64,000 nucleotides of DNA from a virus (taxonomy: Duplodnaviria; Caudoviricetes): IMG/VR virus record IMGVR_UViG_3300028197_000002; one strand, given 5' to 3'. Each line of letters starts with the position of its first letter. Within the stretch, counting starts at the first letter, position 1. Positions 2,665-63,803 of this stretch are shown here, piece by piece. The translations under genes were made by a program, and so were the position numbers. The notes under the pieces were generated by a model. The model made no database searches and was not told the DNA's origin. It saw only the letters and a list, made by a program, of their open reading frames with translations.

Positions 2665-3123
2665 TTATCTGTTTTGATTAATCCAACTTGAATAGTCAGA
2701 TTTTCTATAGCCTTTCTTTTTGCTTTTTATCACTTCATTTTTAAGAATAAAAGAAGTGGGATAAGATCTTACTTTAAAACTTTTAGCTAGATCTTTTCTC
2801 TCATCAGCATTTACAAAACAAATAACGTAGTTTGTTAAATCGAAATTCCTTATTTCATTTTTTAACTTTACGCAATATCCACACCAATCTGTTCCTAAAA
2901 CAACCAATAAAGGTTTGTCTTTTGAAATCTTTAGTGCTTCTTCGTAGCTATCAGCAAAGATAGGCTCTGAAGATTTAGGTTCTTCTGAGCTTTTTGGCAT
3001 TACTATTTGAGAGTTAGAATTTTCCCAATTGCCACTTGCTCCATTTGCGTCATGCGCAGAAGTGCAGCCAATTGTAGGAATTAATACTAATGCCAATGCA
3101 ATTAAACATATTTTTTTTATCAT
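2665..3123 (-). CDS. Thioredoxin-like (lipo)protein
   Basis: Signal peptide ending IGC (lipobox-like); WCGYC redox motif; VRSYPT cis-Pro motif; AGGAGG SD. Confidence 0.8.
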   Translation of the reverse strand: MIKKICLIALALVLIPTIGCTSAHDANGASGNWENSNSQIVMPKSSEEPKSSEPIFADSYEEALKISKDKPLLVVLGTDWCGYCVKLKNEIRNFDLTNYVICFVNADERKDLAKSFKVRSYPTSFILKNEVIKSKKKGYRKSDYSSWINQNR

Positions 3124-3214: not shown

Positions 3215-3622
3215 ATGAATGAATTAATATTAGAAATAAATAAACTGAGTGTAGAAGAAGTTGCCATAATAGTAGAAAACTATTGGTTGGAGTTGGCTGA
3301 GGTCGCAAAAGATCCTGCTCAAAAACAAACATTTTTACAAAAAGCTGGTGCTGTTGGAAAAAAAGTACTTCAAGGTATAGGCGGAGCAGCAAGAGGTGTG
3401 GCAGACGCATTTAAACAGGGATATGAAAACAAATCTAATATTGACAAAGTAATCCAACTTCTCACCGATGAGGGTCTTTATAATAATGAAATAAAGGCAA
3501 TTCTTGCAAAAGCGGTGATGCAGAAAGCACAAAAAGCCAAGGCATCTAAATCACCAAATAAGTCCGGCCAAAAACAAATGAAATTGCCATTCAAAGAATG
3601 GCTTTTAGAAAACTCAAAATAA
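3215..3622 (+). CDS. Hypothetical protein, possible head/internal protein
   Basis: GAGG SD; helical, Lys/Ala-rich; C-terminus MKLPFKEWLLENSK resembles the motif found at N-termini of other ORFs here. Confidence 0.6.
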   Translation: MNELILEINKLSVEEVAIIVENYWLELAEVAKDPAQKQTFLQKAGAVGKKVLQGIGGAARGVADAFKQGYENKSNIDKVIQLLTDEGLYNNEIKAILAKAVMQKAQKAKASKSPNKSGQKQMKLPFKEWLLENSK

Positions 3623-4360
3623 ACTTTTATTTACCCGTAACTTTTTAGCTATTGGTTTTTTGTGATAGTTTAATGATGTAGATTCAATAAAATAAAAATT
3701 TATATAAGTAAAGTTTTCAACTTCTAAACGCATGTCTTTCAAGAGAGAAACGGCATTCATTAAGTCTTTTTTATTAGAATGATAATGTCCAGAATAATTA
3801 TCGACATTGATTATTTTCCCTGAAGAATTAATATGAAGCCTGCCTGCTCCATAAACAAAAGAGGATTCGTCGCTTAAGTAATAATGCTTATATCCTATTT
3901 TTAAATTTTTACTTTTTGTAATTACGAAATCTAAAAAGATATCAGTTGAAGAATTTACAAAATTTGATTTAACAATATCTTTGAAATTTTTAAATAATAT
4001 TTTTTTGTCAACAATTTCAAATTCAAAATTTTTATATTCGCGTATAACATATTTTTTGGGATTTATTTTTAGTGTAATTGCATATTGAAAATGTTTTTTC
4101 AAAAACGCAAGACATTCTTTTACTTCAGATTTTTCAACTTCATTTAATTTTACTTTGACTTTTTTGTTTTTTACCTTAGCCAATTCATCGTCAAAACTTT
4201 TGCCATTTAAATAAAATAAAATTAAAAACTCATCTATTAATTCTTTTTTCAAATCTGTACTTTCAATTAATCTAAATAGTTCTGCATTATTTCCAGGATC
4301 ATTTGGAAACAAATGAGCTTTTTCTAACCAACTCTTTAGTTCTACATTTTTATTTAACAT
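3614..4360 (-). CDS. Hypothetical protein with toxin-like 'N.SGHY' C-terminal domain
   Basis: GAGRLHINSSGKIINVDNYSGHYH resembles the AG.l....G.i..i.N.SGHY signature seen in polymorphic-toxin/effector-like domains. Confidence 0.4.
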   Translation of the reverse strand: MLNKNVELKSWLEKAHLFPNDPGNNAELFRLIESTDLKKELIDEFLILFYLNGKSFDDELAKVKNKKVKVKLNEVEKSEVKECLAFLKKHFQYAITLKINPKKYVIREYKNFEFEIVDKKILFKNFKDIVKSNFVNSSTDIFLDFVITKSKNLKIGYKHYYLSDESSFVYGAGRLHINSSGKIINVDNYSGHYHSNKKDLMNAVSLLKDMRLEVENFTYINFYFIESTSLNYHKKPIAKKLRVNKSLF

Positions 4361-4678: not shown

Positions 4679-4706
4679 TTGACAATTAATTTTGAAATCT
4701 TATAAT
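4679..4706 (+). promoter_or_regulatory. Consensus sigma70-type promoter for csrA
   Basis: TTGACA (4679-4684), 16-nt spacer, TATAAT (4701-4706), 40 nt upstream of the csrA ATG. Confidence 0.8.
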
Positions 4707-4745
4707 TAAAGCACCTAAACTTAAAATTTTATTCAAGGAGTGGAT

Positions 4746-4925
4746 ATGTTAGTTCTTACTAGAAAAATGAATGAAAGTATTATCATTCAAGACAACATAG
4801 AGATTTGTATTGTTAATGTTGATAGAGACAGAGTCAAAATTGGAATACAAGCTCCCAAAGAAATCTCAATTCATCGAGCTGAAATTTATGAAAAAATTAA
4901 AAACTCTGATGTCGAAAAAGCCTAA
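4746..4925 (+). CDS. csrA: Carbon storage regulator CsrA/RsmA-family RNA-binding protein
   Basis: [48 protein letters not shown] is the classic CsrA pattern; AAGGAG SD supports ATG 4746. Confidence 0.95.
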
Positions 4926-4993: not shown

Positions 4994-5248
4994 ATGAATA
5001 AGTTATTTTTTTTAATGTATAAGTTAGTTTTTTTAATAGCTTTCTTTTTATTGCTTTTTTTGTCACTGATTAATCTTCCTAAGACAGTTTCGAACCTAAC
5101 AGTTGAAAATAAAATTAAAGATTCTGAGCAAAAAGGGTTGACTCCTAGAGATTTTTTATTAGTTTATAAGTTGTGGTTTGACGAAGAATGGAGAAAAGTA
5201 GGAGAAGATGCTTTGGCTGAAGGTGACAGTTTTATCTTAAAAAATTAA
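4994..5248 (+). CDS. Small membrane-anchored protein
   Basis: Hydrophobic N-terminal helix, 84 aa. Confidence 0.55.
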   Translation: MNKLFFLMYKLVFLIAFFLLLFLSLINLPKTVSNLTVENKIKDSEQKGLTPRDFLLVYKLWFDEEWRKVGEDALAEGDSFILKN

Positions 5249-5351: not shown

Positions 5352-5549
5352 ATGGAGAAGGCGAAAAAAAGAATAGAAATACTGCACAAGGCAGACGAGC
5401 TTTATGATTTTGCTCAAAAAATATTTTCAAATAAAAGAATAGAATTATTAAAAAGATGTGGTGAATTATACAAAGAAGCTGACCTAAGTCTAATGGCAGA
5501 AAAAGTGAATAAAGAAGCAGAGACTTGGGATCGCTGGCTAAATGGATAA
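5352..5549 (+). CDS. Hypothetical protein
   Basis: AGGAGG SD, 65 aa helical. Confidence 0.65.
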   Translation: MEKAKKRIEILHKADELYDFAQKIFSNKRIELLKRCGELYKEADLSLMAEKVNKEAETWDRWLNG

Positions 5550-5584
5550 TTAACCAGCGACCGCCTCATCAATAACTCATTTGC

Positions 5585-6562
5585 TTAATCAATGCTACCT
5601 ATTTCTCCACCGTTGCGAGTAATAGCGCCAGCAAAGACTCTTAAATCAACATTGTCATTAATAGTTCTGGTTGATCCATCGGCATATACGCAGTTCATAA
5701 CTCCGGGATGCATACTATATGCCTCACCATCATTAATAACATTAAAAGGAACATTGCCAGAACAGTTCTTGCACTTATCACCATTGGCATCAATACCATG
5801 TAATTTAAATGGACCTAAACTATCTGCCCAACTAATGCATTGGTTAGTTCCACCTGTAGGAGATCTTCCATTACTGGCTTTATAAACATCAGGTCTACTT
5901 GCGCACTCTACAATCATAAGAGTGTTGGAAAAACCATCAATGATATCCTGTTCCTTAGTTACCTTATCTTTTATCAAACAACCATCGTCCCCAGTTTTAT
6001 TTGCATAAGGATCGCTACCAGCAGGAAAAACTTTATCTTTAACACCAGTAAATGTTTCATAGTCAGTATAACCAAGAATGTTAGGGTCTAAACTTGGAGC
6101 AGCACTATCGCTATCTCTAGTAGGCCCATCAACATTAACATAACCACCACCGGGAGGAAGTGCAGATGGACATTTTAGTACCGAGGCTTGTGTTGCAATA
6201 GCTTGAGTATTCTCCCACCAATTCTTATTAAAATCATATATGTTTGCTACATTGCCTTGCTCTAAATTTGCAAGAACAAATGCTCTCCAACTATGTTCTG
6301 TTCGTGATGGATTGCCAAGAGAACTAGGAGTTTCAGATAAATCTTTAGCCTCTATAGTCCAAGCAGCAGCAGGGAAATATTTTTTTTGATCTAAACTCAT
6401 GTGCATTGCAAGACCTTGTTGTTTTAAATTATTAGAGCAACTTGCTCGTCTTGCCGCTTCTCTAGCTTGTTGAACAGCAGGCAATAACAATCCTACTAGA
6501 ACGCCAATAATTGCAATAACCACTAGTAATTCAATCAGCGTGAAACCTTTGCGATTCTTCAT
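5585..6562 (-). CDS. DUF1559 (Planctomycete-type) prepilin N-terminal cleavage/methylation protein with H-X9-DG motif
   Basis: KG|FTLIELLVVIAIIGVLVGLLLPAVQQAREAARR..CSNNLKQ.GLAMH at the N-terminus; HPGVMNCVYADG (H-X9-DG) at the C-terminus. Confidence 0.95.
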   Translation of the reverse strand: MKNRKGFTLIELLVVIAIIGVLVGLLLPAVQQAREAARRASCSNNLKQQGLAMHMSLDQKKYFPAAAWTIEAKDLSETPSSLGNPSRTEHSWRAFVLANLEQGNVANIYDFNKNWWENTQAIATQASVLKCPSALPPGGGYVNVDGPTRDSDSAAPSLDPNILGYTDYETFTGVKDKVFPAGSDPYANKTGDDGCLIKDKVTKEQDIIDGFSNTLMIVECASRPDVYKASNGRSPTGGTNQCISWADSLGPFKLHGIDANGDKCKNCSGNVPFNVINDGEAYSMHPGVMNCVYADGSTRTINDNVDLRVFAGAITRNGGEIGSID

Positions 6563-6649
6563 TTTTATTTTTCCTTTATTATGAGTTTATTAAAAATATA
6601 AACTATAATATTCAATCTCAGAACAATAAAAACATTAGTATTTGATTAG

Positions 6650-7066
6650 TTATTCAAATTTGTCAAAAGGGTGAAAAACTTTGACCCATTTGCCTTTAAA
6701 TAAGCTTTCTGGATCTTCAAATACTTGAGGACTATCATCATGGTGAATTAAAGAGTTTAGACCAGACAACATTTTTCCTTTAGGACCGCCGGTGGCAATT
6801 ACATCTATTATTGGAAGCTCATTATCTTTAGCGAATTGCACTACTTCTGGTCTATCGCGATTTTTTCTTGCAGTTACAACATAAACTGAGTAGCCTTGAG
6901 AAGCGTATTTTTTTAGTTTTCTTACATTCTCTTCACACGGCTTCTCTGAACTAGAAGACCAAATTTCATTTTCTTCATCCCAAAAAGGCAAGGTTAATGT
7001 GTTATCAAAATCAAATGTAACTACACCTTTATCTTTTCGAGATTCTATCCATTTCTTAAAGCTCAT
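6650..7066 (-). CDS. HAD-superfamily phosphatase
   Basis: Motif I FDFDNT, motif II VVTAR, Lys, motif IV HHDDS; AGGAG SD. Confidence 0.8.
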   Translation of the reverse strand: MSFKKWIESRKDKGVVTFDFDNTLTLPFWDEENEIWSSSSEKPCEENVRKLKKYASQGYSVYVVTARKNRDRPEVVQFAKDNELPIIDVIATGGPKGKMLSGLNSLIHHDDSPQVFEDPESLFKGKWVKVFHPFDKFE

Positions 7067-9333: not shown

Positions 9334-9353
9334 AAGGTTATTGGAGAAGAAAA

Positions 9354-9902
9354 ATGAATAAAACTTTTGAAGAATGGCTTAAACTTCGAGAAGAGGGCGG
9401 AGCATCAGGTGGATCAGGCGGAGCATCAGGTGGATCAGGCGGAGCATCAGGTGGATCAGGCGGAGCATCAGGTGGATCAGGCGGAGCATCAGGTGGATCA
9501 GGCGGAGCATCAGGTGGATCAAGTGGAGCATCAGGTGGATCAAGTGGAGCATCAGGTGGATCAAGTGGAGCATCAGGTGGATCAAGTGGAGCATCAGGTG
9601 GATCAAGTGGAGCATCAGGTGGATCAAGTGGAGCATCAGGTGGCGAATCAGGCGGCGACTCGGGTGGAACACCACTGGGAGGTGACTCGGGTGACTCTGA
9701 AGGCGACTCAGAATCCAATGACTCAGGATCAGATCCAAATGATTCCGCTACAACATCTAAAGACATTGCTAAACGTCCATACAGAGTAGGTTTTTATCCT
9801 TGGGGATTTGGACATTGGGTTCAGAAAAAGAAAAAGAAGAAATGCAAATACGGCAAAAGAAAAGATGGTAAATGCAGAAAAACTAAAAAGAGGAAAAAAT
9901 AA
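9354..9902 (+). CDS. Gly/Ser-repeat protein with polybasic C-terminus, probable internal head protein
   Basis: MNKTFEEWLKLREE + (GASGGSG/S)x11 + acidic linker + KKKKKKCKYGKRKDGKCRKTKKRKK; GGAG SD. Confidence 0.7.
   Translation: MNKTFEEWLKLREEGGASGGSGGASGGSGGASGGSGGASGGSGGASGGSGGASGGSSGASGGSSGASGGSSGASGGSSGASGGSSGASGGSSGASGGESGGDSGGTPLGGDSGDSEGDSESNDSGSDPNDSATTSKDIAKRPYRVGFYPWGFGHWVQKKKKKKCKYGKRKDGKCRKTKKRKK
9399..9643 (+). repeat. 21-nt coding tandem repeat, 11 full copies plus a partial copy
   Basis: GGAGCATCAGGTGGATCAGGC x5, then GGAGCATCAGGTGGATCAAGT x6, then a partial unit. Confidence 0.95.
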
Positions 9903-9913
9903 AAAGAGGAAAC

Positions 9914-10762
9914 ATGGATAAAGATAAAGTTGGTTTTTGTTTCACTGGAGAAGGTGCCCGAGGAGCAATTCAAGCCGGTATTGCTTTAAGTCTTTTCAAA
10001 AAAGGGATTAAACCAGACTTTACAATAGGAATATCTTCAGGATCTATTTGTGCATCTTCTTACTGTTATCTAGGTCCCGAAGGATTAGCTGACTTATGGT
10101 CTAGCGTAAAAAGTATTTTTAGTGTTTTTAGAATTAATTATAACTTTCTTTGGAAAAGAGGGTTGATGAATCAAAAACCAATGGAAAAAATACTTTCTGA
10201 TGCAATGAAAAATGACCCTATTTGCGAAAGTGTAGTAATTCGAATGAATATAGAAGATGGGTTCATGGACTATGTATCTAATAAATCAACTACTACAGAG
10301 GAGTTCAAAGAAGCTGTTTTGGCAAGTGTTGCAATAACTTCTTTAGTTGAAGATAGAGATGGATGGGTTGATGCCGGAAGTAGACAAATCGCTCCTTTAG
10401 AACAATGTATACATTCAGGATGCAATAAAATATACGTCATAATGGGAAGAAGATTGACTATAGATCCGTGGCGTAAACCAGAAGGCTTTTTAAGCTCTCT
10501 TAAAATGGGTTTTAGAGCATTTGATATAGCGTTACAGGAAATAATGATTAGAGATATTAATCGTTGTTTGAAAAAGATAGGAGATATGGATTATAAAGGA
10601 ATTGATATTTATTTGGTTGAACCAAATGAAACTTTTTATGAATCCGCAAATTTTAAAAAATGTAAAGATGGAGTCGTTTATGGAGAAGAAGGTAATTATC
10701 ACATCCAAGACAAAAAAGCTTTACAGTTAAATAATTTTTTGAAAGGTTATGAAGATGTTTGA
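9914..10762 (+). CDS. Patatin-like phospholipase
   Basis: GEGARG (oxyanion loop), GISSG (GxSxG nucleophile), WVDAG (DGG-like Asp). Confidence 0.85.
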   Translation: MDKDKVGFCFTGEGARGAIQAGIALSLFKKGIKPDFTIGISSGSICASSYCYLGPEGLADLWSSVKSIFSVFRINYNFLWKRGLMNQKPMEKILSDAMKNDPICESVVIRMNIEDGFMDYVSNKSTTTEEFKEAVLASVAITSLVEDRDGWVDAGSRQIAPLEQCIHSGCNKIYVIMGRRLTIDPWRKPEGFLSSLKMGFRAFDIALQEIMIRDINRCLKKIGDMDYKGIDIYLVEPNETFYESANFKKCKDGVVYGEEGNYHIQDKKALQLNNFLKGYEDV

Positions 10763-10979
10763 AAGAGAAGAAATAGATTATTCTGAAGAATCCTCTGGTA
10801 TTTTTTTGGAATCTAAAAAAAATACCAGAGATGAAGAAAAACTTAAAGAAGCATGGGCTTGTTGCTTTTTAGCTACTCATGCTCCTTCTTTTGAAGACTT
10901 TTCTAAATTAACTAATTTGAATATCACAAAAAGAAAGTACGAAGAACTTTGTAAAAAAATGTTTAAAAAATTTAGCTAA
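10749..10979 (+). CDS. Hypothetical protein
   Basis: Overlaps the upstream stop; 76 aa. Confidence 0.5.
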   Translation: MKMFEREEIDYSEESSGIFLESKKNTRDEEKLKEAWACCFLATHAPSFEDFSKLTNLNITKRKYEELCKKMFKKFS

Positions 10980-11388
10980 TCCAAAAAACAAAATCATCTA
11001 GTTCTTCATCAAACGCAGATTCAACTATTCCTTTTGAAGCAAGAATGGCAAGAGTATTACTTATTATTCTTGTGTGAATGCATTTCAATATATCGAAATA
11101 CATTCCTTCAGAAACAATCATTTTTCCATCCCTATGTTTTATCATAGGGAACATTAAAACTTCACACTCATGATCGGAGATTATCTGATTGTTGATTTCT
11201 TCAAAATCAAGTTTAGCTTTACTGGCAATCTCTATAAATTCACTTGTTATTTTATTTGTAACTTCATCATATTCTTCTTCAATATCTTTTTCTTCTACAA
11301 AAGTTTTAAAATTATCCACAGCTACTTTTTTTGTTTCTTTAACAAAAAAATTAAAATCTTTTATTAAATAATAGTTTTCTTTGCTCAT
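10972..11388 (-). CDS. Hypothetical acidic protein
   Basis: 138-aa ORF; TAAATT-N5-ATG upstream. Confidence 0.6.
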   Translation of the reverse strand: MSKENYYLIKDFNFFVKETKKVAVDNFKTFVEEKDIEEEYDEVTNKITSEFIEIASKAKLDFEEINNQIISDHECEVLMFPMIKHRDGKMIVSEGMYFDILKCIHTRIISNTLAILASKGIVESAFDEELDDFVFWIS

Positions 11389-12328: not shown

Positions 12329-13015
12329 TTACATTAAGTGTAGTTCTTTTTGATTGATATCATAAAACCCTCTTTCTGTTGGATCAAATAATTTACTATT
12401 CTCTCCATCAATTTTAGTAAGTTCGATATACATTGCGTCTACTGTAAATTTAACTCTCTCTACATCTTTTTTAATATCATTCGTATATCTAAGATGAGTT
12501 TTTCCTTCTTCTTGGTATTCTTCTGTAAGCGTATCTATTTCGAATTGTTCTTTGTCAACTATGGCGCAAACAGTTGCCTCATTTTTATTTTCATTTTTAT
12601 TTTTAATATACCATAATTTATGGTCGTTTTCATCCGCAATATCGGGTTTAAAAGAAATCTCAATTTTATTTTTACTTAAATTAAAATTTTCATTTGCTTT
12701 AAATCCAGCGCTATGAAGAATAAGGCAAATTTGCTCTGGAGTGGCATCTGTGGTTAATTCAAATTTCTTAGGAGTTTTATTTCTAAGGAAATCTCTAACT
12801 GTAGATCTGCACAGCAACAAGGTCTTTTTAGGCATTTTTATTTGCTTGGATGTATCATCCATTATTTCTATAGAGTTGCTTTTAGAAAAAGCTTCAATAA
12901 TAGGATTCATTTTAGAAGGAGGAACAAATCCTTCTTCTAATTTAATATATTGTTTTTTCCAATTTCCATCATCTTCGCCTTCTTTTTCTATTAAAAAATC
13001 TTTAAATTTTTTCAT
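12329..13015 (-). CDS. Degenerate CCA-adding/poly(A) polymerase head domain (pseudoenzyme)
   Basis: RSTVRDFLRNKTPKKFELTTDATPEQI aligns to GGxVRDLLLGKxPKDFDxxTxATPEQ; ERVKFTVDAMY aligns to RRDFTINAxY; ends after the head domain. Confidence 0.75.
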   Translation of the reverse strand: MKKFKDFLIEKEGEDDGNWKKQYIKLEEGFVPPSKMNPIIEAFSKSNSIEIMDDTSKQIKMPKKTLLLCRSTVRDFLRNKTPKKFELTTDATPEQICLILHSAGFKANENFNLSKNKIEISFKPDIADENDHKLWYIKNKNENKNEATVCAIVDKEQFEIDTLTEEYQEEGKTHLRYTNDIKKDVERVKFTVDAMYIELTKIDGENSKLFDPTERGFYDINQKELHLM

Positions 13016-17049: not shown

Positions 17050-20000
17050 ATGGCAGATAAAGTACCACCTGATTTTTCAGAAATACATAAATCTTTTGAT
17101 TCATTAGTAAATGCACTAAATGAAGATACTAGTGCTATAAAAGATCTGCCTGATAATATGGCAAGCGCAATGAATAATAATAAATCTTCTTTTGATAAAT
17201 CAATAGAAGATTTAGTAAAAATCATGTCTGCTCTAACGGGACTTAATGAATCAGTTTTAAAGTCATCTCAAGATGCGCAGAAGTATTTCAAAGATCTTGC
17301 AAAATCAGCAAATGACGCTAATAAAGATAGACAAAAACAAGAAAAATCTTCTGAAAAAAGTAGTCAAGATTTACTTGGAGCGGTTGAGCGCGTAGGTGAA
17401 AACGTTAATGACATGAACAAAAACCTAGAAAAATCCATATCGGGATTTGCTGAGGTTAATAACAAGAATTTTGACGACACGATGGCTCTCACGAAGGCGA
17501 TTGGTTACAAACCGTCCACATCAACGCAAGCACAAGCAGGAGCAGCAGAAGTAGCAGCAGGAGTAGCAAATCCACCACCACCTGATTTTGGGAAAGGAAG
17601 GTTTGAATTTGATGATAATGACTTTTTCAAAAGACAAGGAAATCAGTTAACTAGTTATCTCGCTCAGTTAACAGGAGGCGTAGGTCTAACTCAAGTTTTA
17701 TTTACAGGTGCTGCTAAAGACGCTTTTATATTTCAAGCCGCATTGCGAGAAGTTGCATTTGAGACTCAAGGCATAACAGGAGATACTAGAGATCTACAAG
17801 TTGCATTTGGAAAATATGGTGATGTAGTTGAAGCAACTGGAAAAAACGTAGACGAGTTTCAAAATGAATACCTTAAAAATTTAAAGAAAGGAACCAAAGC
17901 TAATCAATCTGGACTTAAGGTTATAAAATCAGGATTAGCCGCGTCAACTTTAATAGGCTCAAGTACAGAAGCAACAGCTGATCTTTTTGGTGAATGGAAT
18001 AGAACTTTAGGTCTTAGCGAAAGGCAAATGCAACAATTGTCTAGAGATTCATTGTCTGTTTCTAGAAGTACAGGCGTGACTGGCGATGAACTTGTTAATG
18101 CAATGAATGCATCTAAAAAGATTTTAGAAAATTTAAGAAATCAAGGAAATCTCACAAGCCTTGCAATGAAAAATGTAATTGGCATGTCTGCTGAGGCTCA
18201 AAAAGTAGGCGTAGGAGATGCCTATATGAAAATTGCAAATGCTCTATCAAGTACAAATTCATTATTAGAATCTACAAGTGATGCGACTGGAGGTTATCTT
18301 CTTAGTGTAGGAGCTGCTATTGGGAAAACGGGAACCATGCTTGAAGGAACCTTCATGCAGTCAAGAAAAAATTTAGGTTCTTTAGCTTCAGGAATGGAAG
18401 GAACTTTAAAAAGACTGACCGGCGATGTTGGAATGACGTTTGAGCAGATAGGAAATCTGAGTGTTAAAGAACGACAAAGACTTTCTATACAGCTAAAAGG
18501 ATTAACTGGCATGGAACTTACTGAGTTCCAAAGAGTTGGAGAAACGTTTCGAAAGCAATCTAGAGGCATAGCAGGAACGCTAAAAGATCTTGAAGACGAA
18601 ATGAAAAATACCAACATGACAGCCGAGGAAAGAGTAAAGGCTGAAGCAGATTATGCAAATGCACTAAGCAACCAAGGACTTGCGGCATCAACAGCTTTTG
18701 ATAAATCCCTTAAAGCAATTGATCCAAATGCTTTTGGAAGCAAGATGAAAGCTTTTGAATCAGCAACTGGAAGTTTTGTTGATGATTTAAAGCAAAGCGG
18801 AAATCTTGGAGAATTTAGAGAAGATTTGTCTGCTGCGATTGGAGGTTTGGCTAGTAAAGATGTAGGCATCGAGATTAATGGTCAAAAGATAACACAAGAT
18901 GTATTAAAAGGATTAGATCCTATTAATAATGCTGGAGATGCCGCATTGATGATGGGAGCGCAGCAACTTGCTGCTGCCGAATCTTTGAAATTAGCTGCTG
19001 AGAAGAATAAAATTGATCTTAAAGACATGGGATTAGATGCTGATTTTTCAAGCAAACTTAAAAAAGCCATAGAAAGTGGAGATACTTTAAGAATAAGAGA
19101 GATAAATGATGAGATGTCTACTGCCGCTCAAAAAATGGGAGTTGACTTAAAAAAAGGAACAAGCCCTACAAGTGAGTTAAGTAATGCTCTTAACAAGCTT
19201 AATCAGACAATAAGAAATTTAACTTCTGGTCCTCTTATGATGTTTTTAGATATGTTGGGAGGCATGGGTTTACTTTTAACTATATTAGGTGGAACAGCAG
19301 TAGCTGCTGGTTTTGGTCTGTATCAGTCAGCTAAAATGTTCAGTTTAGGTTCAGCAGCTCTGACCAAAGGTTTGAGTGCTATGGGTTTGAAAAAACAAGC
19401 CCTTGCAGTACACAAGAATTCCAAAACTATTAATCGTGCTGTCGGAAGTGTAGAGAAATCAGTGGGCAATGCGGCTGCGAATATAAAAACAGGTACAAGA
19501 TCAATTTTTGAGCCATTCACTAAAGGATTCTCAAGAGCAAGATCTCAAGGACAAGGTTTTTTCAAATCACTAGATCGAGGTCTAGGAGGACTGATTCAAT
19601 CAAGTAACAAAACTAGAGGACTTATGAAGCTCCCAAGTGCTGTTTACAACACGTTTGATTCAGTAGGAAAAGGAATCACACAAATTACAAATCCTGTAGC
19701 TCAAGGTGCAAAAAATATATTTAAACCTTTTGGGACAGGTTTCAAAACAGCAACGTCTCAAGGCGCAGGATTCTTCGAATCTTTAGGAAAAGGTTTCAAA
19801 TCACAAGGATTATCAAGTTATTTTAAAACAGCTAGTAAAGCTAGCACAGCTTATGCTAACTCTTTAACTAAAATAGGACAAGCTCAAAATTATTTAATTA
19901 GAAATGGATCAAACGCATTAAATGTTATAAAATCGTCAGGCGCAAGTACTTTGTCTTCTTTGAAATCTACTGGCTCTTCTGCTGTTAAAACCATCACCTC

Positions 20001-23000
20001 TAAAACAACAGATATGTTTGGAGCTTTTGGAAAAGGATTTACACGAGCAAGATCAGCAGGAGATGGATTCTTTAAATCTTTGATAAGAGGATTTAAAGGT
20101 GGGTCTATGACATTAGGAACAGTACAAAAAGGAGTAAGAGGTGTTGGTACTGTAAAAGCAGGTATTAGCTCGGCAAGAGCAGGCCTTGCTGCTAGAGGTG
20201 GAATAAAAGGACTAGCAAAAGCCGCAGATGCAAAAGCTCTTGTTGGATTTACTAAAACTTTAAGCGCAGGAAAATCTGGACTCAAACTAGCAACCGGTGG
20301 TATTAAAGGCTTGTTTAAAGCTATAAGTACCGCTGGTAAAAGTTTTCCTCCTTTAGCTATTGCTCTTGCTGCCATTGATGGCATCATAGGCGGGTTTATG
20401 GGCTTTTCTAGAACTGCTGGTAGGTTTGAAAAAGATTTTGGCGAATTAAATGCTGGAATGTATGCGTCTTCGACTGTAGCCGGTGTTTTAGTTGGAATAT
20501 TAGACGGTCTAACTTTTGGACTACTTAATTTCTCAGGTGTTGGTAGAGCTTTGGAAGATTACTTGGCTTATTCTATCAATACTATAATGGGTCTTTTCTA
20601 CGGAATGGTAGATGGAATTAAAGCGGCATTTTCTTTAGTAAGCAATGCATTTAGTGGAATAGGAGAACAGTTTGCAAGAATAGGACAAACAGTATTAGGC
20701 GCATTTAATAAAATATTTGGAATATTTGGAGTACAGGCAGACAGCATGGGAGGCATGTTTGCAATACTTTATGATGTTATGAAGGCAATTGGAAAGCCTA
20801 TAGGATTTATAATAGGACTTCCTTTGGCTGCAACATTTTTTGTTTTAGGAAAAGCAATAAGCTTGCTTATTGTTCCTATAGAAATTTTAGCAAATTTAAT
20901 ATCTGCTGCTGTTGATGTTGTTGTTGGTTTTAGTAAAGCCATATATGGACTTCTCACTTTTGATTTCGATATGATTGGTGCAGGATTCAAGCAAATTTTT
21001 GGTGGGTTGTATGATGCAGTAGCAGGAACTATTGGCCCTATAGTAAATTGGGTATCAGGAGTATTTACTGGATTATACGACATTGTAGCTGGAACTGTTG
21101 GTCCTGCACTTGATTGGCTTAAATGGGCATTTGGAGGAATATATGCTTTTATCGCTCCTATAGTAGTAGCTATTGGAACCGTAATTTCCACCGTATTTGG
21201 TGCAATATACAAAACAGTTAGTTATATTGCTAATGCAATAGCCTCCGTAATTTCCACCGTATTAAGTCCTATAGTAAATTTGGTATCAGGAGTATTTACT
21301 GGAATATACAATACCATCGCAAAAACTCTTGGAGGTATTGTAGATTGGTTTAGTTGGTTGTGGAAAACATTAGTAGGAGGTTCTATAGTTCCTGACATGG
21401 TTACAGGAATTATAAATTGGTTTTTAAAACTACCACAAAAAATATTCTCTGCTTTAATGACCATACCAAAAATGATTGGAAATGTTTTTTCTAATATTGG
21501 TTCTTATCTTTCTAGTTTTGGAACAGAAAGTTACTTTGGAACCTTAATGTCTCAAATAGGAAATGTATTTAGTTTTATTGGAAGCACTATATCAAATGTT
21601 GTCGGAGCTTTGCAAGGAGTATTTAATATATTCTATGGAATAGCTACTTTGGACTTTGGAAAAATATGGGAAGGCATAGTAGGCATAGGCGCCGCCATAG
21701 GAAATCAAATCAAAGACATAGGTAAGTTTTTATATGCAGGAATTAAAAATTCAGTTTCTTATCTTTTCAAAGTTTTAAAAAGAATTCCTGCCACAATCTT
21801 CAGAGTTTTAAAATCAACTTTCATAGCATTTCCTAAGTGGTTGTTAGGAAAAGTTATGGATGTTGCTTATCTATTTGGAACCTTCTTGGCACGAATACCA
21901 GAAATGCTCTACAAAGGAATTGTAAAAACTATAAAAAGAATAGGAGAATTTTTATACAACGCGTTTATGTGGCCTTTTAGAAAAATAGCTGAGTTTGCAA
22001 CATTTATTTATGACAAGGTCGTTGGGCTATTAAATAAAACACTCGAATTCTTTATGGATATTCCGGGACATGTAGGAGCTGGAATTTCTGCTTTGTGGGA
22101 GGGATTGTCAGGCTTAGGAGGAATGATATTAGATGGATTGGCAGGCTTAGGAGGAATGATATTAGGTGGATTGAAATCTGTTTTTGTAGATTTTCCAAGC
22201 TGGTTGCTTAGTAGCATAATTTCTGGACTTGGAAATTTAGGGGGAATGATATTAGGTGGATTGAAATCTGTTTTTGTAGATTTCCCAAGCTGGTTGCTTA
22301 GTAACATGATTTCTGGACTTGGAAATTTAGGGGGAATGCTAGCAGACGGTATTAAATCTGCTTTTTCAAGTATTGGTAATATTGCATCTTCAATAGGACA
22401 ATCAATACTAGATGGAATCTATAATGTTTTTGTAGGATTTCCAACTTGGCTATATGACCAATTCACAGGAGCTTTATCCGGTGTGTGGGATTACATAAAA
22501 AGTTGGATTCCGGGAATGGGAGCCATAGATGGTTATAATGAATCATCAGTTGCTCAAGAAGCAACTAGATTGCAAGAAGGAAATAGTATGCTCCATGCAG
22601 GAGGAGCAGCTGTTGGCGGTGTTGGTGATATACTAACTGGTGACTTTAGCGAAGGAGCATCTAAAGTTGGGGGAGCTATAAAAGAAGGAGTATACGCTGC
22701 TGGAGAAACTATATCTGATGCTGCTAATGGTGCTTGGGAAGGAGCAAAGGCAGTCGGATCTTATCTAAACCCTTTCAATTACTTTAATGAAGGAACAAGA
22801 CAAATACAGCAAACTGGATTGGCCATGCTTCATGAAGGCGAAATGGTTGTTCCAAAAAATATAACTAATATGGTTGCTGAAGGAAATGGAGTATTCCCAA
22901 GTTTGTCTTCAGCTTTCTCAGGAGTTTTCGCAGGTCTTGGAGACATGCTAACAAACCCTCTCGGCACAGCGAAAAATACTTTAGGTGGCATAAAAAACAT

Positions 23001-23865
23001 GTCGAGTATGTTTTCAAACGTAATAGATCCTTTGGGAATAGGAAAGATTACAGGAGACATGCTAACAAACCCTCTTGGCACAGCGAAAAATGATTTAGGT
23101 GGCATAGAAAACATATCGAGTATGTTTTCAAACGTAATAGATCCTTTGGGAATAGGAAAGATTGCAGGAGACATACTAACAGATCCTCTTGGCACAGCAA
23201 AAAATGCTTTAGGTGGAATTAAAAATTTGTTTTCTAACAAAGAGCCAAATGAAATAGCATCTAAAGAATTACCTTCAACTATTGTTCAAAAACATGGCAC
23301 AATGCCAGTTTTAATTATGAACTGGTCTGAGATAGCGAATGCCATGGGCATAAAAGAACCAAGTGCACCAGAAATTTCATTAGGTAAAATATTAGAAAAC
23401 ATAGGCCCACAAATTATGTCTCCTCTTGGATTGCTTGAATCCATAGGTCTTCCGGGAATTGGAAACATTGGAAGTGCAATAAGTTATTTTGGAAACGAAC
23501 CAGAAACAGCAACTCCATTAGACATGCAACCTGCACCATTAACAGATGTAGGTCAATCAATAGTCAAAGAAAGAACTTCTTCACAAGCTGGCGTCGGGAA
23601 GCTTCAAAGCGATGAGTTAACAAGAATGGAAGAAGCTTCTAATAAACAAGTGAGTGAATTAGAACAAATTAATCAAGGAATACAAGATCTAGTAGGATTT
23701 ATGCGTCCAACCGGAGGTGGAGCAACAGAATCTTCTTCTAGTGACGCTATAATAGGAGATACAAAAAATACTAGAGTTCCTAGGAACTCACCAATATTTG
23801 GAACAATGAAGTATGGATATGCTTCAGGAGGACCAAATAGACAAATTATAAATGATGGTAAATAA
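17050..23865 (+). CDS. Tail tape-measure-like protein (2271 aa)
   Basis: Long Ala/Gly-rich amphipathic helical protein with aromatic periodicity and hydrophobic segments; LAMLHEGEMVVP motif; immediately upstream of baseplate genes. Confidence 0.85.
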   Translation: MADKVPPDFSEIHKSFDSLVNALNEDTSAIKDLPDNMASAMNNNKSSFDKSIEDLVKIMSALTGLNESVLKSSQDAQKYFKDLAKSANDANKDRQKQEKSSEKSSQDLLGAVERVGENVNDMNKNLEKSISGFAEVNNKNFDDTMALTKAIGYKPSTSTQAQAGAAEVAAGVANPPPPDFGKGRFEFDDNDFFKRQGNQLTSYLAQLTGGVGLTQVLFTGAAKDAFIFQAALREVAFETQGITGDTRDLQVAFGKYGDVVEATGKNVDEFQNEYLKNLKKGTKANQSGLKVIKSGLAASTLIGSSTEATADLFGEWNRTLGLSERQMQQLSRDSLSVSRSTGVTGDELVNAMNASKKILENLRNQGNLTSLAMKNVIGMSAEAQKVGVGDAYMKIANALSSTNSLLESTSDATGGYLLSVGAAIGKTGTMLEGTFMQSRKNLGSLASGMEGTLKRLTGDVGMTFEQIGNLSVKERQRLSIQLKGLTGMELTEFQRVGETFRKQSRGIAGTLKDLEDEMKNTNMTAEERVKAEADYANALSNQGLAASTAFDKSLKAIDPNAFGSKMKAFESATGSFVDDLKQSGNLGEFREDLSAAIGGLASKDVGIEINGQKITQDVLKGLDPINNAGDAALMMGAQQLAAAESLKLAAEKNKIDLKDMGLDADFSSKLKKAIESGDTLRIREINDEMSTAAQKMGVDLKKGTSPTSELSNALNKLNQTIRNLTSGPLMMFLDMLGGMGLLLTILGGTAVAAGFGLYQSAKMFSLGSAALTKGLSAMGLKKQALAVHKNSKTINRAVGSVEKSVGNAAANIKTGTRSIFEPFTKGFSRARSQGQGFFKSLDRGLGGLIQSSNKTRGLMKLPSAVYNTFDSVGKGITQITNPVAQGAKNIFKPFGTGFKTATSQGAGFFESLGKGFKSQGLSSYFKTASKASTAYANSLTKIGQAQNYLIRNGSNALNVIKSSGASTLSSLKSTGSSAVKTITSKTTDMFGAFGKGFTRARSAGDGFFKSLIRGFKGGSMTLGTVQKGVRGVGTVKAGISSARAGLAARGGIKGLAKAADAKALVGFTKTLSAGKSGLKLATGGIKGLFKAISTAGKSFPPLAIALAAIDGIIGGFMGFSRTAGRFEKDFGELNAGMYASSTVAGVLVGILDGLTFGLLNFSGVGRALEDYLAYSINTIMGLFYGMVDGIKAAFSLVSNAFSGIGEQFARIGQTVLGAFNKIFGIFGVQADSMGGMFAILYDVMKAIGKPIGFIIGLPLAATFFVLGKAISLLIVPIEILANLISAAVDVVVGFSKAIYGLLTFDFDMIGAGFKQIFGGLYDAVAGTIGPIVNWVSGVFTGLYDIVAGTVGPALDWLKWAFGGIYAFIAPIVVAIGTVISTVFGAIYKTVSYIANAIASVISTVLSPIVNLVSGVFTGIYNTIAKTLGGIVDWFSWLWKTLVGGSIVPDMVTGIINWFLKLPQKIFSALMTIPKMIGNVFSNIGSYLSSFGTESYFGTLMSQIGNVFSFIGSTISNVVGALQGVFNIFYGIATLDFGKIWEGIVGIGAAIGNQIKDIGKFLYAGIKNSVSYLFKVLKRIPATIFRVLKSTFIAFPKWLLGKVMDVAYLFGTFLARIPEMLYKGIVKTIKRIGEFLYNAFMWPFRKIAEFATFIYDKVVGLLNKTLEFFMDIPGHVGAGISALWEGLSGLGGMILDGLAGLGGMILGGLKSVFVDFPSWLLSSIISGLGNLGGMILGGLKSVFVDFPSWLLSNMISGLGNLGGMLADGIKSAFSSIGNIASSIGQSILDGIYNVFVGFPTWLYDQFTGALSGVWDYIKSWIPGMGAIDGYNESSVAQEATRLQEGNSMLHAGGAAVGGVGDILTGDFSEGASKVGGAIKEGVYAAGETISDAANGAWEGAKAVGSYLNPFNYFNEGTRQIQQTGLAMLHEGEMVVPKNITNMVAEGNGVFPSLSSAFSGVFAGLGDMLTNPLGTAKNTLGGIKNMSSMFSNVIDPLGIGKITGDMLTNPLGTAKNDLGGIENISSMFSNVIDPLGIGKIAGDILTDPLGTAKNALGGIKNLFSNKEPNEIASKELPSTIVQKHGTMPVLIMNWSEIANAMGIKEPSAPEISLGKILENIGPQIMSPLGLLESIGLPGIGNIGSAISYFGNEPETATPLDMQPAPLTDVGQSIVKERTSSQAGVGKLQSDELTRMEEASNKQVSELEQINQGIQDLVGFMRPTGGGATESSSSDAIIGDTKNTRVPRNSPIFGTMKYGYASGGPNRQIINDGK
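22147..22338 (+). repeat. 90-nt tandem duplication inside the tape measure gene
   Basis: LGGMILGGLKSVFVDFPSWLLS..ISGLGN x2 plus start of a third copy; near-identical DNA. Confidence 0.9.
22939..23226 (+). repeat. 114-nt tandem repeat (about 2.5 copies) inside the tape measure gene
   Basis: GDMLTNPLGTAKN.LGGI.N.SSMFSNVIDPLGIGKI units start at 22939, 23053 and 23167. Confidence 0.9.
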
Positions 23866-34293: not shown

Positions 34294-34548
34294 ATGAAAA
34301 GAAAAGTTTTATTTGAAATCAGAAGATTTAATGGCGAAGATTTAATTTTTATTGATAATCAATATTTTGATTTTGCAATAGATGATTCTTCTTTAGAAAA
34401 AGTTAATTCTTTAGAAGGCGAAGAATTAGAAAAAGTTCATGAAAATATTAAAAATTATCTTCTAACATCACTTGCTCAGGTTCTAGGCAGAGCAGTAGCA
34501 ATGAAAGAAGTTATGGAGGCTATTAAAACAGGCTATATACAACTATGA
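34294..34548 (+). CDS. Hypothetical protein
   Basis: 84 aa in the tail operon. Confidence 0.55.
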   Translation: MKRKVLFEIRRFNGEDLIFIDNQYFDFAIDDSSLEKVNSLEGEELEKVHENIKNYLLTSLAQVLGRAVAMKEVMEAIKTGYIQL

Positions 34549-35024
34549 TGCTAGTAGAAGAAAAGGACAAAAGGTTCTACATAAAAGAATCAAATATAAA
34601 AGATGCAGGAATGGGAGTTTTTGCTTCTGAGGATATCAAAAAAGAGTCTTATCTAGAAATAATAGGAGTCATGGTCAATGTAGGTTCGGTTTCGGATCAA
34701 TGCACTGATTTTGCAAAAGACTATAAATTTGCAGCTCAATATGAAGATAAATATACAAGACATATTATTCCAATGGGTTATGCGGCAATAATCAATCACG
34801 CGACAGAAGAAAAAGATCAAAATGCTACAATAAGATTTATAAATAAAAATAATAAGAACCCAGCCGCTTCTTCTGCTGTTTATTTTTTCACAAAAGATAT
34901 AAAAAAAGATGACGAAATATTGGGAAATTATGGAGAAAAATGGCAAACTAGAATTGCAGAAGATGCTGACTGGCAAATGTTTTTAGATTTAGAACTATAT
35001 AATTTAAAGAAATTAAAAAGATAA
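34545..35024 (+). CDS. SET-domain protein-lysine methyltransferase
   Basis: SNIKDAGMGVFASEDIKK (motif I), IINHA (NHS motif), KDIKKDDEILGNYG (GEEL..DY motif). Confidence 0.85.
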   Translation: MMLVEEKDKRFYIKESNIKDAGMGVFASEDIKKESYLEIIGVMVNVGSVSDQCTDFAKDYKFAAQYEDKYTRHIIPMGYAAIINHATEEKDQNATIRFINKNNKNPAASSAVYFFTKDIKKDDEILGNYGEKWQTRIAEDADWQMFLDLELYNLKKLKR

Positions 35025-47876: not shown

Positions 47877-48896
47877 ATGGCAATAGGATTTGACGCAGGA
47901 ACTTATCATTTAGTTAGTTGTAAAAAACAAGGCGAAGAATATATTTACAAAAAAGAGGTAAATGCTTTTTTGGAAATGCCTTTAGAAAACAGATTTGTTT
48001 TCAATATGATGAACAACGCAGGAGTCCCTTTAATCGAAAACAAAGAAGCAAATGTTGCTTACGCTCTTGGTGAAAAGGCTGTAGATATGGCTTACACTAT
48101 GAATCAAATAGAACTTAAAAGGCCTATGAAAGATGGATGCTTAAATCCAAAAGAAAGACATGCGCAACAAATAATGAATGTTATGGCGCATAGTCTCATA
48201 GGAGAGATTTCGCAAAATGAAGAAAAGTTGTATTACTCTGTCCCTGCAAATGCTATAAATCAAGAAACTGACGCTGATTATCACTCTAAGATATTGCAAG
48301 CAATGTTCAAAGCTTACGAAAGTGAGCAAGGCTTTAAAGTTGATGCATATCCTATTAATGAAGCTTTGGCTTTAGTGTATGCTGAGTTAACAAATAAAAA
48401 TTGGACTGGAATTGGAATTTCTTTTGGCGCTGGAATGGTGAATCTTTGTTACGCTATTTATGGAGCGCCAATTTTTCAGTTTTCTTTAGTTAACAGTGGA
48501 GATTGGATTGACAAGATGGCTTCAAAAGCAATAGGTGAAGATACTACCACTTATGTAAACAAAGAAAAAATGAAATCTGATCTAACTATTGATCAACCTG
48601 ATACGCTTGTTCAAAGAGCAATCAAAACTCAGTACGAGATCATGATTCAACACACAGTCAATGGAATAAAACAAGGTTTAGAAAATGCTGGAAACAAAGC
48701 AAGATCAGAGGAACCTATTGACATAGTAATTGCTGGCGGTACTAGTATGCCAGTTGGATTCGAAAAAATGTTTTCTACAATATTAGAGCAATCAGGTATT
48801 TCTGATAACATTAAAGTCGGCTCTGTAATTCGACCAAACGACCCTTTGTTCTCTGTGGCCAGAGGATGTTACATCGCAGCTGAAAACGCAACTTAA
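47877..48896 (+). CDS. Actin-fold ATPase (MreB/FtsA/ParM superfamily)
   Basis: Phosphate-1 IGFDAGT, connect-1 INEALA, phosphate-2 GISFGAGM, adenosine IVIAGGTSM, connect-2 FSVARGC; GAGGTG SD. Confidence 0.85.
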   Translation: MAIGFDAGTYHLVSCKKQGEEYIYKKEVNAFLEMPLENRFVFNMMNNAGVPLIENKEANVAYALGEKAVDMAYTMNQIELKRPMKDGCLNPKERHAQQIMNVMAHSLIGEISQNEEKLYYSVPANAINQETDADYHSKILQAMFKAYESEQGFKVDAYPINEALALVYAELTNKNWTGIGISFGAGMVNLCYAIYGAPIFQFSLVNSGDWIDKMASKAIGEDTTTYVNKEKMKSDLTIDQPDTLVQRAIKTQYEIMIQHTVNGIKQGLENAGNKARSEEPIDIVIAGGTSMPVGFEKMFSTILEQSGISDNIKVGSVIRPNDPLFSVARGCYIAAENAT

Positions 48897-63335: not shown

Positions 63336-63803
63336 TTAAACATTAGAAAGCATCATTCTAATGTGATCTGCGTCTTTTCTGCTATCGAGTATCTGATCTT
63401 CTAAGAAAAGTTCTATGTATTTTCCATCAATAGCATCTTCGCCACCATTCTCTTGTAATTTACAAGCCTGTTCAATCCTTGCAACATAATTTGAAACAAC
63501 GTCATCTTCCATTTTTAAAGCTGCTTTTAAGATTTTAGAGCAATCACTTAAATTATTATTAAAAGGAGCAATTTCAGTAAAGACTTTGAAATCTAAATTT
63601 CTTCTTTCAATTAGCCCATGCAAAAGCCTTTTGAAGGCTTCAACATGACCCATTTCGTCTTTAGATTGCTCTAGCAAAAATTCGCCAATTTCTTCTCTAT
63701 GAAATCCTTTAATAGAAGTAGCTGCTTGAAGATAAAAATTCCAATGGCTATATTCTCTTGAAAGATCTTTTAGTAGAAGTTCAACTATTTCATTAATGTC
63801 CAT
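63336..63803 (-). CDS. Ferritin/bacterioferritin-like protein
   Basis: Di-iron ligand spacing: REYSH (E), DEMGH (ExxH), MEDDVVSNY (E), DADH (D/ExxH). Confidence 0.85.
   Translation of the reverse strand: MDINEIVELLLKDLSREYSHWNFYLQAATSIKGFHREEIGEFLLEQSKDEMGHVEAFKRLLHGLIERRNLDFKVFTEIAPFNNNLSDCSKILKAALKMEDDVVSNYVARIEQACKLQENGGEDAIDGKYIELFLEDQILDSRKDADHIRMMLSNV

Follow-up and report, generated by a model that had tools for sequence, protein, structure and literature searches.

A host-derived, prepilin-type DUF1559 gene maintained in marine phages with probable Pirellulales hosts

The virus of IMG/VR record IMGVR_UViG_3300028197_000002 (Duplodnaviria; Caudoviricetes) carries a single gene for a DUF1559 protein, here called P0001, in the 64,000-nucleotide stretch that we analysed, hereafter called the window. 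In planctomycete genomes, no paralogue family is larger than DUF1559, and Planctopirus limnophila has 68 copies, two of which are essential (PMC10632474). The initial annotation of the window had described the gene as a prepilin-like one, assigned the phage to a planctomycete host, and suggested that the product acts as a decoy that blocks superinfection or alters secretion or adhesion. In the present study, we find that the gene is real, intact and phage-borne, and is under strong purifying selection. The trees place it as a capture from one Pirellulales DUF1559 orthogroup, the cellular members of which are followed by a gene for an exported, phytase-like protein. We tentatively propose that the phage gene is a working copy of a host envelope gene.

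The DUF1559 gene and its product

Read on the minus strand, positions 5585-6562 form an uninterrupted frame of 325 residues, in exact agreement with the coordinates first assigned to the gene. The plus-strand reading of the same interval was ruled out, as it contains stops throughout. Four family models match the product, each above its own curated threshold, which is the cut-off quoted here. PF07596 (DUF1559/SBP_bac_10) scores 140.3 bits against a cut-off of 23.3 (E = 1.6e-40), with residues 31-307 aligned to positions 1-267 of the 268 of the profile. The N-terminus matches both PF07963 (N_methyl; 38 bits, cut-off 21.2, E = 1e-9, residues 1-27) and TIGR02532 (cleavage/methylation motif; 32.2 bits, cut-off 16.3), and TIGR04294, which describes the H-X9-DG motif, matches residues 281-302 (27.3 bits, cut-off 19, E = 2.2e-6). 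The three features named in the initial annotation are all in place: the DUF1559 body; an intact class III signal peptide, in which a basic leader precedes G6/F7-T-L-I-E11 in the translated frame; and the H-X9-DG motif itself, formed by H285, nine residues, and D295-G296.

P0001 has the glycine at -1, the hydrophobic residue at +1 and the glutamate at +5 that characterize the signal of the pilin superfamily, and its top PDB sequence matches are pilin N-termini. Residues F7, T8, L9, E11-V15, H285 and D295 are invariant across 80 homologues. Many of the invariant positions are occupied by Asp, Glu or His, which hints at a metal site in the head. With the motif intact, cleavage between G6 and F7 by the prepilin peptidase of the host is plausible. 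The GspG equivalog, TIGR01710, gives 38.4 bits, which is under its cut-off of 88.85, and aligns with residues 5-85 alone (E = 1.1e-9). As compared to its cellular relatives, the phage protein has a shorter leader, and it lacks the C-terminal tail that is seen in part of the cellular clade.

The AlphaFold2 model of P0001 (predicted local distance difference test score, pLDDT, 90.6) consists of an N-terminal helix formed by residues 9-60, a compact head, and a C-terminal sheet, with the H-X9-DG motif located in the last β-hairpin. When the whole model was compared with VIA-align, the top rows were nearly all pilins or pseudopilins, at weak Z scores of 3.0-4.5 (PilA4 4.5, EpsG 4.2, PulG 3.1), and the Foldseek matches of the whole model involve the helix only. 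A model of the head by itself (pLDDT 92.7) found no counterpart among solved structures at Z ≥ 2, or among the Swiss-Prot models. No solute-binding protein appeared among the Foldseek or VIA-align matches of either the whole or the head-only model; an absent match is no proof of a different fold, and the model lends no support to the “solute-binding protein” label of the Pfam family. The model supports a pilin-type anchor only.

Phage setting of the gene

The surroundings of the gene are of phage type. The window encodes gp25, a gp6-like wedge protein, a gp5-type OB domain and a P2-I-like baseplate protein, and in addition tail-collar and PKD fibre proteins, a primase and a PD-(D/E)XK nuclease. 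The G+C content at third codon positions (GC3) of the DUF1559 gene is 0.221, as compared to 0.212 ± 0.025 in 25 other open reading frames (ORFs) of the window and 0.36-0.64 in the nearest cellular orthologues, which bears out the phage-like, AT-rich codon usage noted at the outset.

Could the gene be an artefact—a host fragment misassembled into a phage contig, or a functionless passenger in decay? Its overall GC content (0.387) lies somewhat above the window mean of 0.333, and DUF1559 is otherwise a cellular family, for which a tblastn search of 50,697 GenBank phage records returned no match. However, near-identical DNA is present in marine and viral metagenomes of many studies, and near-identical contigs in two viromes and a marine metagenome, which come from three further studies, run across both gene ends into the adjoining sequence (X3 record 15 at 6378-6994, X4 record 21 at 6429-6752, and X12 record 2 at 5438-5665). 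Because independent contigs bridge both junctions, the gene is not chimeric. Moreover, GC3 equals that of the phage genes, homologues with 68-92% identity to P0001 are encoded on 38 IMG/VR viral contigs, the longest of 195 kb, the frame is intact, and the ratio of nonsynonymous to synonymous substitution rates (dN/dS) is far under 1. The artefact reading is refuted for practical purposes, and its remaining probability is negligible.

Conservation among phages

In total, 299 viral stretches encode a DUF1559 relative of any kind, and on contigs retrieved via the protein database, the gene has phage-type neighbours (ThyX, HNH, denV-type endonuclease, rIIB, endonuclease VII). The viral structure library BFVD contained no match to the DUF1559 protein. 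A comparison of the window with the complete 165,940-bp phage G406 by tblastn found homologues for six of the 66 window ORFs: the DUF1559 proteins are 90% identical, and the other five pairs are 32-37% identical. The flanks of the other viral DUF1559 loci diverge likewise. The baseplate wedge protein of the window found no match in four complete DUF1559-bearing phage records, which is a weak negative. By gene content, the DUF1559 carriers and the window phage are not close relatives.

Against 24 phage relatives, synonymous divergence (dS) is 0.75-1.4 and dN/dS is 0.06-0.25. The gene has therefore been under long-standing purifying selection and is no very recent copy; together with the phage-like GC3, these values uphold the earlier remark that it is not obviously a recent host insert. 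Every family-invariant residue is retained in the phage proteins, and at the sites conserved in both cellular clades of the orthogroup (see below), no residue is fixed differently in phages. The related complete phage records have one or two DUF1559 copies each, and Peptidase_A24, the prepilin peptidase, was not found in four of them. In the complete 171-kb record G407 (IMGVR_UViG_3300024324_000009), the second copy lies at 90807-91709, ~55 kb from the first, and is ~32% identical to P0001. Tandem pairs of DUF1559 genes occur in locus L001 and in a 162-kb NCBI contig.

Origin of the gene and probable host

In the trees, P0001 falls inside one orthogroup with 100% support in the Shimodaira-Hasegawa-like approximate likelihood ratio test (SH-aLRT), set apart by a long stem from the ordinary planctomycete paralogues, which in titled planctomycete genomes are at most 41% identical to P0001. 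The orthogroup consists of three parts. The first is a 71-row clade (96% support) that includes P0001, and all 27 of its rows with known context are viral. The second and third are cellular clades, one of which holds a nested phage subclade, represented by L218. Because the L218 subclade nests in a cellular clade, the orthogroup has been captured by phages at least twice. The L218 contig (JGI 3300042932, 88 kb, GC 0.33) is phage-like: along with its second-lineage DUF1559 gene, it encodes endonuclease VII, RNA ligase and many small ORFs. It also carries a gene of DUF1501, another planctomycete hallmark family.

The nearest cellular homologues of P0001 are 62-64% identical to it and come from genomes of Pirellulales, the order of Blastopirellula marina, and from metagenome contigs. 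An orthologue is present in six of 401 sampled genomes of this order, all of them 2.8-4.3 Mb in size, with best identities of 62-63%. A phylum-wide sample of 401 Planctomycetota genomes, with five candidates scored per genome, gave no match at E ≤ 1e-60, a weak negative. Two cellular members sit on metagenome contigs that also encode PSCyt1/PSCyt2/PSD1, DUF1501 and sulfatase proteins. In the ESM Atlas, the clusters closest to P0001 are planctomycete. A scan of 185,579 species genomes used N-terminal peptide patterns only and returned ordinary paralogues at 28-38% identity, not the nearest relatives; the best 80 matches listed all come from genomes titled Planctomycetota. One candidate, L119, was rejected as a 64% relative, as this figure covered an N-terminal segment only and the best E value of that genome is 1.3e-27. 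The host-like genomes contain 22-31 DUF1559 paralogues each, and Peptidase_A24 was found in four of the five host-like Pirellulales genomes.

The clade that contains P0001 thus branches, in these phylogenies, from a Pirellulales DUF1559 orthogroup, and the gene is by its sequence relationships one captured from that orthogroup. It is nested in a host clade, has phage codon usage and is under purifying selection, as a host-derived auxiliary gene is. For the phages that carry it, a Pirellulales host is supported by these homologues, which sharpens the planctomycete host that had first been suggested.

Partner genes of the orthogroup

What does the orthogroup do in cells? In all nine cellular orthologue loci, a phytase-like PF13449 gene with a Sec signal peptide lies directly downstream of the DUF1559 gene, and no such gene occurs within 5 kb of the other DUF1559 paralogues (0 of 80 loci). 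After the phytase-like gene there is usually a small lipoprotein gene; two loci have a gene for a choice-of-anchor I β-propeller in that place. In Nodularia, the genes with the strongest induction under phosphate limitation include one from the phytase-like family (PMC9846622); this study is the one outside source that supports a phosphorus role.

Part of this arrangement recurs in phages. In a sister subclade (P0035-P0051, 63-67% identical to P0001), the DUF1559 gene is followed by a phytase-like ORF, which begins before the DUF1559 gene ends and has a Sec signal peptide. In addition, the IMG/VR loci L250 and L251 (3001-5398) combine the DUF1559 gene with a homologue of the cellular small lipoprotein (30-34% identity) and a phytase-like gene. 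The gene order in this block differs from that in cells, where the lipoprotein gene comes after the phytase-like gene. Judging from these gene arrangements, the operon partners were captured along with DUF1559 in one phage subclade. In the clade of P0001 itself, they have been lost from the locus. A single-sequence complex prediction for the phage DUF1559 head and the phage phytase-like protein scored 0.00, which is evidence neither way.

Does the phage copy instead act against competing phages? It might be built into a pilus- or pseudopilus-like surface structure of the host, where it would alter or hide the binding site of competitors by receptor replacement or superinfection exclusion; in a variant of this idea, it would be a poison subunit that halts assembly of the structure. 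P0001 has all of the features for entering a prepilin-dependent machinery, differs by ~37% from the nearest host orthologues, and is common to phages of very different backbones. The capture, at least twice, of one orthogroup from among so many paralogues would also be consistent with this idea, provided that phages use the host protein, or the complex to which it belongs, as a receptor. A precedent exists in the FimU-like minor pilins of Pseudomonas prophages, and virulent phages too carry PilA-like genes (PMC12952977). However, the known cases described there are highly diverse through phage-against-phage competition, whereas the present gene is among the most conserved in its genomes. The invariant residues are kept, with no phage-specific substitutions at conserved sites; a decoy needs no co-captured, secreted enzyme-like partner or lipoprotein, such as one subclade carries; and there is no evidence for DUF1559 proteins as a surface fibre or a phage receptor. 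The decoy role proposed in the initial annotation is thus unsupported, and we regard exclusion as a doubtful explanation. A working copy fits better than a decoy because the gene evolves slowly and, in one subclade, its partners were co-captured.

Neighbouring genes

The features of the DUF1559 locus and of its neighbourhood are summarized in Table 1. In the 5′ region, sigma-70-like sites are no commoner than in shuffled sequence, and the site listed is therefore a hint at most. The HAD-type gene is joined to the DUF1559 gene by independent contigs.

Table 1. Features at and near the DUF1559 gene in the window
Feature	Position	Strand	Basis
DUF1559 / H-X9-DG prepilin-type protein gene (P0001), complete, 325 aa	5585..6562	-	Open frame, PF07596, PF07963, TIGR04294, AlphaFold2 model
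Basic leader, predicted prepilin peptidase site G6/F7, E11 at +5, start of α1 helix (residues 1-27)	6482..6562	-	PF07963, TIGR02532
DUF1559 body, compact globular head on helix (residues 31-307)	5642..6472	-	Pfam match, head-only model
H-X9-DG C-terminal motif, residues 281-302 (H285, D295-G296 at 5675-5710)	5657..5722	-	TIGR04294
5′ region: AAGGA ribosome-binding site ~9 nt ahead of ATG; sigma-70-like TTGACA-18 nt-AATACT, 10/12	6563..6666	-	Sequence reading, consensus scan
84-aa protein, one N-terminal membrane helix	4994..5248	+	33-48% identity to ORF right after DUF1559 in related phages
138-aa HAD-type phosphatase-like protein, DxDxT motif, without signal peptide; upstream neighbour, context only	6650..7066	-	TIGR01662 HAD-IIIA, E = 2.6e-6, below cut-off
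Thioredoxin-fold protein, lipoprotein-type signal peptide	2665..3123	-	PF00085, E = 1.3e-11

The 84-residue membrane protein has no family match. Its homologues are encoded just after DUF1559 in many related phage loci (L006, L007, L009, L020, L027, L030, L031, L036, L038 and G406), unlike the window, where its gene lies on the strand opposite to DUF1559. In G406 and in many other viral loci, a homologue of the thioredoxin-fold protein (30-38% identity) is encoded within a few kilobases of DUF1559. The products of 2665-3123, 3614-4360, 4994-5248 and 10972-11388—the thioredoxin lipoprotein, two proteins without an assigned function, and the small membrane protein—form a set that recurs within a few kilobases of DUF1559 in otherwise dissimilar phages, and looks like a loose host-interaction gene set. 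An actin-fold ATPase at 47877-48896 (+; Pfam Volactin, E = 3.6e-64) has a 34% identical homologue in the otherwise unrelated G406.

These neighbours bear on another explanation, in which the phage copy remodels the envelope or secretion of the host more generally, apart from any phytase-like partner, and alters secretion, uptake, the cell surface or the export of phage proteins, possibly in concert with the small membrane protein usually encoded after it. In most loci of the window's clade, no phytase-like gene was found within 10 kb. Other neighbours are conserved in the clade (a 107-residue protein upstream, and a small membrane protein, a 184-residue protein and DUF6899 downstream), and the thioredoxin lipoprotein, the membrane protein and the actin-like ATPase recur near the gene in unrelated phages. 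Against this explanation, the conserved sites are unchanged relative to the cellular orthologues, the recurring neighbours have no known function, and in the window the neighbours conserved elsewhere in the clade are absent or inverted, and no fixed new partnership is apparent here. We consider general remodelling to be decidedly unlikely.

A csrA gene (4740-4925, +; PF02599, E = 2.4e-24), with its probable true start at the ATG at 4746, lies ~650 nt from the DUF1559 gene and is preceded by a perfect TTGACA-16-TATAAT site at 4679-4706. The phage CsrA is 44-56% identical to the csrA products of five planctomycete genomes, which have 2-8 copies per genome; this similarity is compatible with a planctomycete host, without discriminating power. 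The DUF2459 protein of the window found no match in five planctomycete genomes.

Elsewhere in the window, the baseplate genes are closely preceded by a 2,271-residue ORF (17050-23865, +), for which neither Pfam nor PHROG gave a match. A frame with a Pro/Asp repeat of PPDAP units (9338-9766, -) overlaps one on the opposite strand (9354-9902, +). The window also encodes a SET-domain protein within the tail gene run (34545-35024, +), the head domain of a poly(A) polymerase/CCA-type nucleotidyltransferase (12329-13015, -), a ferritin-like protein (63336-63803, -) and a patatin-like phospholipase (9914-10762, +).

Proposed role in infection

We propose that P0001 is a working, host-derived auxiliary envelope gene product that serves the machinery of the phytase-like enzyme, perhaps for the scavenging of organic phosphorus during infection. 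We assign this reading a probability of roughly 45%. The proposed course is as follows.

Capture: An ancestor of the phage took the gene from an orthogroup of marine Pirellulales, in which it forms a fixed module with the Sec-exported, phytase-like β-propeller and the small lipoprotein.

Processing: The phage protein would be made with its class III signal peptide and inserted into the cytoplasmic membrane, where the prepilin peptidase of the host would cut and methylate it.

Function: The processed protein may then replace or supplement its host counterpart in the envelope machinery at the service of the phytase-like enzyme, whether it acts as a membrane anchor or, like a pseudopilin, as a component of an apparatus for secretion or display. 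In this way, the phage would maintain or raise this host function during infection. The likeliest such function would be to free phosphate, for which a large DNA phage has a high demand, from organic phosphorus. The processing, the localization, the joint action with the phytase-like protein and the tie to phosphorus are all inferred.

Several observations weigh against this proposal. The DUF1559 family is uncharacterized (PMC10632474), and the structure provides no functional support, because the head matches no solved fold. Neither a phytase-like gene nor a small-lipoprotein gene was found within the window, and the partners used by this phage would therefore be those of the host or be encoded elsewhere in its genome. 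The phosphorus link derives from the annotation of the neighbouring family and one cyanobacterial transcriptome. Strong conservation is equally expected of a subunit that docks into host machinery for another purpose. Finally, the sole metatranscriptome match is one 191-nt, mismatch-free contig inside the gene, possibly a DNA carry-over.

A more specific form of the proposal, which we consider rather unlikely as it stands, is that DUF1559, the lipoprotein and the phytase-like β-propeller constitute a dedicated organic-phosphorus module in the envelope of streamlined marine Pirellulales. DUF1559 would be its cargo-specific pseudopilin or anchor, and phages would carry the module, or the DUF1559 part of it, as a phosphorus-acquisition auxiliary gene, in the manner of pstS and phoA in cyanophages.

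Comparison with known systems

P0001 shares with the cellular DUF1559 proteins of Planctomycetota the full-length PF07596 match, the same cleavage motif, the H-X9-DG motif and the invariant residues. It differs from them in being phage-encoded, with phage codon usage, a shorter leader and a position in a phage-only clade. P-FimU of the F10-like Pseudomonas prophages, like the PilA-like genes, is a phage-borne homologue of a prepilin-type envelope protein of the host that depends on host machinery; it is highly diverse and acts at a defined pilus tip (PMC12952977). In contrast, P0001 is strongly conserved: its low dN/dS, and its 90% identity to the G406 protein where the other shared genes are at 32-37%, are not the diversity of P-FimU. 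It is also ~3 times the size of a minor pilin, belongs to a family without a demonstrated fibre and, in some phages, is accompanied by a secreted enzyme-like partner. With GspG (EpsG/PulG), P0001 shares the class III signal peptide and a similarity that extends past the helix to residue 85. However, its head comprises ~265 residues, as compared to ~90 in GspG, and its score is below the equivalog cut-off.

Marine cyanophages carry the phosphate-acquisition auxiliary genes pstS and phoA. P0001 resembles them as a host-derived gene for an exported or envelope protein that is under purifying selection in large marine phages, and its partner family is tied to phosphate limitation (PMC9846622). It has no homology to them, and its putative phosphorus role derives from the gene neighbourhood in the host lineage.

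Implications

Phage-borne pilin-like genes are already known in kind, and the literature that we searched contains no mention of DUF1559 in phages. The assignment to a specific Pirellulales orthogroup, the repeated capture, the conservation across unrelated backbones, and the link to the phytase-like protein and lipoprotein are new here. They bring the recently reported theme of phage pilin-like genes to another phylum and into marine phages of lytic type, with an evolutionary signature that is the reverse of the one seen in known exclusion proteins. As a host marker, the gene provides sequence-based evidence that large uncultured marine phages, including complete records of 157-195 kb and the phage of the window, infect Pirellulales.

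One orthogroup out of 22-100 paralogues has been captured at least twice, and it is tied to a phytase-like enzyme and a lipoprotein. This leads to the testable hypothesis that DUF1559 works with the neighbouring exported enzyme. If the phosphorus module is real, this would be the first functional assignment in the largest paralogue family of the Planctomycetota, and it would suggest that many DUF1559 paralogues may be cargo- or substrate-specific adaptors.

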